Below, piece by piece: positions 33,001-36,000 of a stretch of DNA of 64,000 nucleotides (its first letter is position 1; the number at the start of each line of letters is the position of its first letter). This DNA comes from Spirochaetia bacterium (GTDB lineage Bacteria; Spirochaetota; Spirochaetia; SP-2023). The stretch covers positions 160,001-224,000 of the forward strand of contig CBDDCK010000005.1 in assembly GCA_965225855.1 (NCBI GenBank), given 5' to 3'. The position numbers are program-made.

Positions 33001-36000
33001 GATAAAATCTGTTCGTTCTATGTATTCAGCTTGTTTTGTGGGGTGAGGAATAACCAGCTCTATCTCATCGGCACCTTGTTGTAAAATGTAGCGGATTTCG
33101 GCAATGACTTCCTCTAAAGGCAATTCTCCCTTGGGGAAATTGACTACAGAGGCAACATTGAGTATGGGCAGTTTTGCCTGAACAAATGCGTCTTTTAGTA
33201 GAGAAATATAGCGGGGATACACACAAACTGCAGCAGCTACATTACCCAAATTATCCAATGCTGAACCCGATAGGTTGCAAGCTTTTTTGGCTAGTTGCTG
33301 AATGCGCTCTTCGGTCTGATCTCCATGTAAACTGGTATAATCGATTAAACCCATAAATTCTTGCTTGTATTCCATGGTCTTCCTACCTTAATACAAATTT
33401 ACTAGCTATTATTTTATACAATGGTTGCAATGGTTGCAATGGTTGCAATTCTAGCACAAATGTCTTGCTTAGACAATACCTAAAAATTTAGCATTCACAA
33501 AAAAAGGCCAACCAGTAGATACCCAGTAGGTACAATGTAAACAAGCTGGCCGAAAGTAGCAGGCCAGAGCTACTAGAAAAGCAAGATCAATCAAGCAAGA
33601 TCAATCAAGATGGTGTCTTGCTGGGCTTACTGGGCTTACTGGGCTTGCTTGGTTTATTATGCGATTGTATTGACCACTATTTATTGAAAACTATCCAACG
33701 GTAAATATAGCATCAGAACTAATGATTTTTAACTTTTTGGAAACGATAGAACCGCTATAATAGGTACGCACTTCCAATTTGTATTTGCCGGCACTTAAAG
33801 ACGGAATAATATAAATTAGCTCGGAAGGCTTGTTGGCGATCTGGTTGCTTAGCTTTGTTTCAGAATCATCTTTAATATTTACCAAAAATAGGCCTTCTTT
33901 GTTATCGGTAGATACAGAAGCTTGTATTTTGATGCGATTACCAAAAACTTTTAGCCCACCGCTAGGCGTAAGAACCCTATCGTTGGTTTGGCTGGCCACA
34001 TCTTCTACCGTGGTAATCCGGGCTTCTTTACCGGTGCTATAGACTCGTTCTAATTCTACTTCTTCCAGCGATTCTTTAAACGATTTGTTGGCGTTGATAT
34101 TGATAGCTAAGCTATGGTTGTCTTTATCAAAATAGCTGTTCGCTGTGGGGAAATTGCCTCTGATGTCAATATGTAGGGTCAATGTACCGGTATTGACGCC
34201 TTGGCCATTTCTTACCATTTGCTTTAATACTTCGTCCAAGCAAGTAAGCACCGCTTCAATATCGGATTTGGTGATAGACGAACCTCGATTGAGCATTAAC
34301 TCAATCAATTCTTCCTTGCTATGGACCTTTTGGTTGCAGACTATTGCATGGTAGCCGCTAGGATTATCCCCTAAATGATTTTTGATTAAATTATATTGCA
34401 ATGCCATATCCATTCTCCATTGTTTTTATTGCATAAGATCAAAATATAAGATTCAGATATTGGGGCTATTTAAACATGATCCAAAGTTTTTGTCAATCCC
34501 CAGCACAATCGGCAATAAAATTACTTCTTAATGCCTATTCAGAGACTCTTGTTAGGTATTAAGAGATTCTCTTAATAAGTATTAAGAGACTCTCTGAATA
34601 GGTATTAAGAGAATCTCTTAATAGGCATTAAGAGACTCTCTTGATATTTAGGGCTCGGTGCGGCATTCTGTTGAAATATGGCCAGCTGGAAATATAATTT
34701 GATCGTTTATACCAAGCAATACCATAACGGCTGCTTTTTTGTTATATTTTTTGTTATAATAGCAGCAAACCCAAAGATAAAAGATAAAGGATAAAGGCAA
34801 TATGCAACAATACACGGCAATCATCAAACAGCAGCAAGGCTGGTGGCTGGGTTGGATAGAAGAAATGCCCGGCATTAACTGCCAAGAACCAAGCCTAGCA
34901 GAATTACGCCAAAGCCTAAAACAATGTTTGGCCGAACTGATACAATTGCACCGAGCCGATGCGTTGGCGTTGGCGTTGGCGTTGGCTGGCAATGATTATT
35001 TTGAAGAAACCATTGTATTATAAATATTGTTGTTTGGTATGAAGCGTAAGCAGTTGATACGCTATTTAGCAGCAGAAGGTTGTATTTTGGTAAGAGAGGG
35101 CTCAAAGCATTCTTGGTGGCAGAACCCCAATACAGGAGCATATTCTGCAATACCTAGGCATAGTGAAATAGTAGACATTCTAGCGTATAAGATTTGTAAA
35201 GATTTAGGTATCCCGAAAATACCATAACAAAACGTTTGCTACTCTATTTTGGCAATTGCTTGACAAACCAAGCCATTGCGCTATAGTTTGGCTTGCGACA
35301 AAGCCTAAAATTATGTTTTGCGAGGTTATTATGGCAAACAGAGCTGCTGATGCTTATTACAATAGAGGGGTGGCTTATGCGAAGAAAGGCGATTATGAGT
35401 GCGCCATACAAGAGTACAACCGTGCCATACAGCTAAACCCCAATGATATAGAGGCTTTTACCAATAGAGGCAATGCTTATACTAACCAAGGCCAGGTTGA
35501 GCAGGCGATACAAGATTACAGCCAAGCCATAGAGCTAAACCCCAATGATGCTGTTGCTTTTGACAATAGAGGACTGGCTTATTATAACAACCGCCAAGTT
35601 GAGCCGGCGATACAAGACTTGAAAAAGGCCATAGAGCTAAACCCCAATTTTGCCGATACTTTTACCAATAGAGGGATAGCTTATGCTAACCAAGGCAATT
35701 ATAAGCGGGCCTGTAGTGATGCTGTGCAGGCCAAGAGTTTGGGTGATAGTACGCTGTATGATTATCTTATAGAGCAAGGGCTTTGCCAGTAGGTTTTTGT
35801 TGCAATGGGCAAACTGTTTAAGGCATAGATATGCCAAGCCATGCTCGCTTTTATGAAAAGTATATTCTTCCAATTATTATGAAGGCCAGCATGGATTCTG
35901 CTTTATTCATGCAACAGCGAAAAATGGTTGTTCCCTATGCTCAAGGCAATGTGCTGGAAATCGGTATAGGCTCTGGCTCAAACCTAAAATACTACGATAA

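Follow-up and report, generated by a model that had tools for sequence, protein, structure and literature searches.

HU-Ig genes and fixed-period palindromic arrays: an apparently unpublished protein-DNA module predicted in spirochaetes and Bacteroidota

HU proteins bind DNA structure, while their homologue IHF is sequence-specific and has one conserved asymmetric site that is read by the clasp arms. Tandem operator arrays, with cooperative loading and autoregulation, are known from plasmid iterons, ParR/parC and the omega heptads. The Ig-fused subclade of the HU-HIG proteins (PF14848 plus PF14734; PDB 4FMR) was described by Burroughs et al. (2017, PMC5499826), who argued from 4FMR, in the passages on this subclade, that the Ig domain narrows the clasp and that a role as a sequence-specific factor is unlikely; no conserved neighbours are predicted for it in those passages. 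BrickBuilt, a MITE/minisatellite of Porphyromonas gingivalis (PMC4596501), consists of intergenic 23-nt tandem units in 19 dispersed copies, with conserved flanks, variable copy number and promoter activity according to the sections on the element. The shortest copy, BrickBuilt_14, given without terminal repeats in Table 1 of that paper, lies in the divergent gap before the PF00216 gene PGN_0872. Arrays bound by HU-HIG proteins are not described in the relevant portions of PMC5499826, PMC4596501 or bioRxiv 10.1101/2024.06.24.600358. A literature search on DUF4469, thin on subscription papers, gave no paper at all, and one on Leptospira VNTR gave only typing papers, judged by their listed entries.

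The window considered here is a stretch of 64,000 nucleotides from a Spirochaetia bacterium (assembly GCA_965225855.1, contig CBDDCK010000005.1, positions 160,001 to 224,000). On its minus strand, at 33691..34413, is a gene for a 240-residue HU-Ig protein, which we place in the Ig-fused HU-HIG clade on the strength of its Pfam matches (PF14848, E 1e-21; PF14734, E 2e-20; PF18291, E 3e-7) and its homology to 4FMR (E 2.6e-12 by sequence search, 1.6e-17 by fold search). The protein has the modified HU domain (HU-DNA_bdg, residues 5-123, 34045..34401) and the C-terminal Ig-like DUF4469 domain (residues 133-227, 33733..34017; model pLDDT 91.6) that define this subclade. The predicted model is of a monomer (pTM 0.57, rmsd 18 A to 4FMR, a homodimer whose Ig domain lies in the path of the DNA) and does not fix the orientation of the domains, but it places strands at E209-219 and E224-239 on either side of a hairpin between the last two Ig strands, the F-G loop (residues 219-227, 33733..33759), which is variable and in relatives of the protein covaries with the array. 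Its sequence varies among the paralogues of the present genome, and it is the predicted specificity determinant. These paralogues are multi-copy and rapidly diverging, as is the subclade at large, with 14 full-length copies that tblastn places at 19-64% identity to the window protein. The first-pass annotation had counted 16 genes of this type; the multi-copy family stands, but the count becomes 14 full-length genes, one divergent gene and some fragments.

Next to this gene is a 23-bp palindromic tandem array of about 4.5 units, which TRF and a periodicity score together place at 34541..34646. TRF alone gives 34546-34646, with period 23, 4.4 copies and 85% matches, and the periodicity score of 55.7 compares with at most 17.6 among 500 shuffles. 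The array lies 127-133 bp upstream of the HU-Ig ATG, not behind the stop codon, in a divergent gap with the HU-Ig gene on one side and a hicB-like/hicA pair on the other (plus strand; 34802..35023, UPF0150-like at E 0.008, below the cut-off, and 35039..35227, PF07927 at E 3e-9). Between the array and the ATG, a possible promoter for the HU-Ig gene was read by eye at 34468..34496 on the minus strand; its TTGACA is perfect and lies at a distance of 45 bp from the end of the array, its -10 is weak, and it was not returned by the promoter scan. Four upstream-type paralogues likewise have a TTGACA in the stretch from array to ATG. On the other side, 25 bp from the array, the scan found a sigma-70-like site facing hicBA (34671..34698, plus strand, 11 of 12 positions), which is weak evidence since 10 sites were returned where 6.5 would be expected. 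Microsatellites lie nearby at 33419-33449 (9-bp) and 34961-34986 (6-bp), with unit-sized deletions in contigs of runs X4 and X2.

We then have the matter of whether gene and array keep company elsewhere. PF14734 is present in 32 of 301 genomes of this phylum and in 12 of 401 genomes of a Bacteroidota-centred sample. Loci were gathered from the own-phylum list (90, not all of the matches), annotated records (seven), genomes (64), the Bacteroidota-centred sample (23) and metagenomes (80), and duplicates were then removed. A 22-24-bp array stands behind the HU-Ig stop codon in 36 of 76 non-redundant spirochaete loci and in 49 of 63 loci of the Bacteroidota group, which includes one Treponema plasmid locus, the set being biased to the relatives of one query. 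Arrays after the stop codon had been claimed for other genomes in the first-pass annotation, and this is correct; in the window the array is upstream. Control genes of the same loci have arrays in 8 of 133 cases (spirochaetes) and 3 of 202 (Bacteroidota group); seven of the eight are 8-bp microsatellites and the other is before an HU-Ig gene. The period is exactly 23 in 77 of the 85 downstream arrays. Long 8-bp microsatellites were also seen upstream of Treponema-like HU-Ig genes (L002, L009, L012, L051, L054, L056 and L067). In the spirochaetes the array is a clade-specific trait: about half of the HU-Ig genes, forming a separate clade, have none, and most spirochaete loci come from one family, as the first-pass annotation had cautioned. 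Phased dyad sites beside a regulator gene, as expected of an operator array, are what these loci present.

The gene that follows is co-directional in 31 of 35 spirochaete array loci and in 14 of 37 without an array, and by a heuristic it encodes a hydrophobic N-terminus in 26 of 35 against 5 of 37. Pfam domains in 11 such genes include B-repeat, LRR, FGE, Cache, patatin, AAA-PD(D/E)XK and flippase, with four unnamed. A Bacteroidota promoter motif past the array was found in 5 of 60 loci, with 3.0 expected. In three genomes, from which 70 loci were taken and 67 scored with sorting by hand, upstream arrays of 21-22 bp occur at 16 of 24 sister HU-wHTH genes (a hand count), and upstream arrays also at 11 of 43 short HU-HIG genes with no second domain. 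The Ig loop is therefore not required in the wider HU-HIG clade; the lattice looks like a property of the clade, and what reads it may vary. The HU-wHTH arrays (among L167-L196 and L300-L339) are contiguous palindromes, and several of the short HU-HIG genes have arrays of 22-23 bp.

We inspected the repeat unit itself, which has a fixed layout of a 6-bp arm, 5 nt, the inverted arm and 6 nt. Complementarity is 0.67-0.95 at 3-8 bp from the odd centre and 0.24-0.45 at 1-2 bp, the null being 0.49. Among 63 units there are 59 distinct arms; within an array the arms are conserved (0.82-0.97) and the 5-nt spacer is variable, while the 6-nt spacer tends to persist between loci with changed arms. In 11 chosen pairs, with the offset set by the best spacer match, spacer identity is 0.5-0.96 and arm identity 0.08-0.69. 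The palindromy noted earlier holds for the window array and the foreign units, but families 1 and 3 of the present genome are weakly palindromic, with stems mostly of 3-5. Two ideas about the units were discarded. The arms are not templated from the 3' end of the gene (23 of 65 against 0.37), and the arrays are not of CRISPR type, as the units run head-to-tail with 5- and 6-nt spacers, not unique spacers of 25-45 nt.

One of the possibilities raised in the first-pass annotation is a hairpin RNA array; in this reading the protein would bind a row of small hairpins and control read-through into the next gene. Folding is strong (z -8.6), as would be expected for any palindromic array, and the spirochaete array loci mostly lack a terminator past the stop codon (3 of 36 have one, against 14 of 40 loci without an array). 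However, in 25 units with 41 and 45 informative mismatches, which gives modest power, there is no excess of G-U pairs (23 vs 18; 23 vs 22), and compensated neighbouring arms are no more frequent than expected (3 vs 2.7; 2 vs 2.0), so that, within that power, neither mark of a structured RNA was seen. The upstream-type arrays, moreover, lie 5' of the TTGACA box, and there was no Rfam match on 10 sources save an unrelated TD-2 RNA (L006:2374-2473, near an HU-Ig locus and outside its array). The lack of G-U and compensatory excess favours double-stranded DNA as the working form, and we regard an RNA role as very unlikely.

Whole-protein identity does not predict the arms, which differ at 7.5-8.9 of 12 positions in every bin below 90%, and to this extent the earlier remark that the unit does not track the protein was right. 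What the arms do track is the Ig F-G loop, and the objection that the unit does not follow protein identity dissolves on that account. In the Parabacteroides-type family there is one arm type per loop type: the loop window is associated with arm class at a phi of 0.89 across 34 proteins that are 85-98% identical, while windows off the loop reach 0.39 at most and the last tail windows, nearer the array, only 0.01-0.10. Between arm classes, 62 of 115 codon comparisons in the loop are non-synonymous, against 259 of 3150 upstream. Because the 3' end of the gene and the array are also linked, pairs were matched on synonymous divergence. Where that of the flank is at least 0.2, the two loops are identical or one residue apart in 13 of 18 pairs with the same arms and in 4 of 142 pairs with different arms; three of the five same-arm exceptions involve the recombinant L105. 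In the spirochaetes, at a divergence of at least 0.1, the loop is kept in 13 of 17 same-arm and 1 of 229 different-arm pairs. The pairs are not independent, and about eight arm classes carry the signal. At close range, then, the site co-varies with an element of the protein.

The linkage is real as well, since association with arm class at the DNA level is high over the whole 3' end (AMI 0.68-0.77), and this speaks for the suggestion that the array is a structure-specific element (a cruciform or bendable DNA) or a neutral minisatellite, with arms homogenised by template switching and with loop and array forming one 3' recombination block. HU proteins do bind DNA structure, and the 6-nt spacers persist through concerted change of the arms. 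Nor did a general recognition code emerge: the best association of a loop residue with an arm base has P 0.047 and the summed P, without tree correction, is 0.01, and Mantel tests of loop against arm gave P values of 0.27 for Bacteroidota, 0.025 for spirochaetes and 0.8 across phyla, eight loci without a parsed loop and L105, L244 and L057 having been left out. We have accordingly dropped the idea of a universal code across phyla, the long-distance code being weak or absent. Against the structural suggestion, loop residues survive synonymous change only when the arms match, the tail, although nearer the array, fails to predict the arms, compensated neighbouring arms are not in excess, and linkage does not explain the fixed period. 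We judge it unlikely. At L105:3760-3960 the start of one array type is followed by the array of another, mismatched to the loop, and L062 and L064 have similar arms despite four loop differences. An anecdotal case is L363 (G000:C4:78094-78822), a paralogue only 26% identical to the window protein: its loop begins in a similar way, and it is followed by an array whose arm is also similar.

Because the arms change in step with the Ig loop, each HU-Ig protein likely binds its own adjacent array, on double-stranded DNA, and if so a transcriptional role is quite probable. Among the three options put forward earlier (phased binding sites, a hairpin RNA array, a recombination or expansion signal), the comparative evidence favours phased binding sites. 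The link between gene and array, the geometry and the loop-arm coupling support the earlier view that they form one module, which appears to be an unpublished addition to a known family. The best reading, contrary to the published prediction, is that HU-Ig proteins are diversifying sequence-specific DNA-binding regulators. In the mechanism we propose, an HU dimer would sit on the lineage-conserved 6-nt spacer and its two Ig hairpins would read the inverted 6-bp arms, so that 3-5 dimers might load about two helical turns (23 bp) apart, bending or wrapping some 100 bp. Upstream arrays, as in the window, would serve autoregulation of the HU-Ig gene, and downstream arrays might gate the next gene, usually co-directional and often for a secreted protein, by occlusion, roadblock or activation.

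Across the present genome, TRF finds 181 arrays of period 20-24, of which 148 are intergenic by our own simple gene caller, in agreement with the number given before. Clustering gives seven families, with 5-26 arrays each, and some smaller ones. By profile scan, in which the profiles include home arrays where TRF had found them, a family array occurs at 10 of 18 HU-Ig gene positions, and families 2, 3, 4, 5, 6 and 8 each adjoin one HU-Ig paralogue type, no gene having more than one family next to it. This genome therefore has one array family per paralogue type, six of eight families having such a "home" gene, with the family-3 home a weak HU-HIG match and family 8 having two members. The other two, families 0 and 1, are never beside an HU-Ig gene by profile scan of this genome, which is 94% complete, as the first-pass annotation had allowed for some families; HU-HIG gene C5:763473 was considered as a home for family 1 and rejected, being a short form without an array. 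Upstream family 6 is common to two paralogues with the same loop (84% identical), and 3 of the 11 loop types have no array. The window array is the home copy of family 2 (24 arrays); its flanks are unique and it is the most symmetric member (symmetry 8.8, the top of the 24 shown). Judging by their contigs, runs X4 and X2 contain family-2 arrays in several copies. By analogy, BrickBuilt_14, in front of PGN_0872 as shown in PMC4596501, is possibly a home array too.

Most arrays are elsewhere, above all at genes of a 116-member lipoprotein family, f0. An example in the window is the f0 gene at 12799..14517 (plus strand; no Pfam family above the cut-off), with a dispersed 21-bp array of family 3, found by TRF, at 14622..14690, 105 bp past the stop. 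The reported association with lipoprotein genes is confirmed: TRF arrays are upstream of 49 of 110 f0 genes, downstream of 36 and on both sides of 17, and with a looser score upstream arrays occur at 67 of 107 f0 genes against 99 of 1021 others and downstream arrays at 41 of 109 against 84 of 904. Other repeats occur within coding sequence of the window: a 33-bp unit present 74 times (46661-49107) in an f0 gene (46266-49211, 981 aa), and 75- and 48-bp coding repeats in its neighbour (45049-45323). At 54702-64000 whole genes recur: a gene of 973 aa and its 114-aa partner occur three times, some 3.3 kb apart.

The dispersed arrays have near-identical flanks in common, and so represent a few amplified modules rather than 150 independent events; flank-linked components take in 26 of 26 arrays of family 0, 19 of 24 of family 2, 16 of 17 of family 4 and 6 of 6 of family 5. 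A conserved leader and tail around the repeats, as in a MITE, is found in dispersed copies only, and those of family 2 run to as many as 34 units, with one of the arms degenerate. For this genome we therefore lean towards the dispersed copies being passengers on amplified cassettes, expanding by slippage and no longer regulating, as had been suspected earlier; this is compatible with binding at the home arrays. Against it, 88 of the 148 arrays, from at least six unrelated families, are within 750 bp of an f0 gene, and the home genes are intact. That the dispersed arrays are still working operators of a regulon seems doubtful. Arrays may have been captured in the flanks of the expanding lipoprotein cassette and then multiplied with it.

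A further reading treats the array as a recombination or mobilisation loading site, like transposase, iteron or arm-type sites, with the HU-Ig protein a bending accessory that moves or reshuffles surface-gene cassettes. Arrays on both sides of f0 genes, several families in a single flank and recombining 3' ends (L105) are all in keeping with this, but no recombinase, terminal repeat or target duplication came to light, although no systematic search for them was made, paralogue-specific arms fit regulation at least as well, and we consider mobilisation quite unlikely. In f0 3' flanks such as those at C5:144715 and C5:553840, parts of families 3, 2 and 5 follow one another. Genome-wide control or reshuffling of lipoprotein and restriction-modification genes, as first envisaged, is doubtful, given the shared flanks and the two homeless families. 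One of these is the mod-linked family 1. The first-pass annotation gave a 22-bp family 29 arrays, nine of them ending 73 bp before type III mod genes or mod fragments. A link to mod genes stands for the 22-bp family, with one gene confirmed as type III mod, but we count 26 arrays, and in the 24 members examined the distance from the start of the last motif to the ATG is 72 bp at five methyltransferase genes, 60 bp at two that were called with a longer start, and 142-150 bp at three. The three congeners (G301-G303) have no DUF4469, f0 was not found in them with one query, and none of the seven repeats of period 20-24 that TRF detected over 400 kb clearly belongs to the present kind of array; all this is suggestive only.

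If the regulatory reading is right, it gives a function to a family of 6533 representatives (50% identity, E up to 0.001), expanded in gut and oral Bacteroidota and in spirochaetes and predicted not to read DNA sequence. Natural protein-site pairs and one short loop to swap would allow a direct test of how sequence specificity arose in the HU fold. It could also supply orthogonal regulators for Bacteroidota genetics, and may account for a class of 23-bp minisatellites and for control of variable surface genes. A bolder version, which we hold only tentatively, makes the HU-HIG proteins a large class of regulators whose sequence specificity has gone unrecognised: the HU dimer would set a 22-23-bp lattice, an antibody-like Ig loop of 6-8 residues would reprogram the site and each paralogue would have a private operator array; operators would have spread over the 116-member lipoprotein family and restriction-modification genes as a combinatorial regulon, and BrickBuilt would be the same thing captured by a MITE.

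Comparison with the described systems shows where the module fits. It shares with the subclade of PMC5499826, as characterized in the passages on it, the domains, lineage-specific expansion, rapid divergence and a distribution that takes in Bacteroidota and spirochaetes; that description has neither arrays nor loop-arm coupling, and "palindrom" stands nowhere in the main text. With BrickBuilt, as presented in those parts of PMC4596501 that deal with the element, it has in common dispersed intergenic 23-nt tandem units, conserved flanks and variable copy number. BrickBuilt is set apart there by a single unit family, IS5-type terminal repeats and no assigned protein, and its consensus palindrome is contiguous in place of the 6-5-6-6 layout; the consensus had no copy in viral contigs or in the 401 sampled genomes. 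Iterons, parC and the omega heptads resemble the proposed module in the phasing of their sites at about two helical turns, in cooperative loading and in autoregulation, but use winged-helix or ribbon-helix-helix proteins at fixed sites in origins or centromeres. The present module has an HU-Ig fold and palindromic units, and its sites turn over between paralogues that are 90% identical. With IHF it shares the HU fold, and site preference and bending of DNA near promoters are predicted for HU-Ig; in contrast to that of IHF, the specificity of HU-Ig appears to map to the added Ig loop and to be private to each paralogue.
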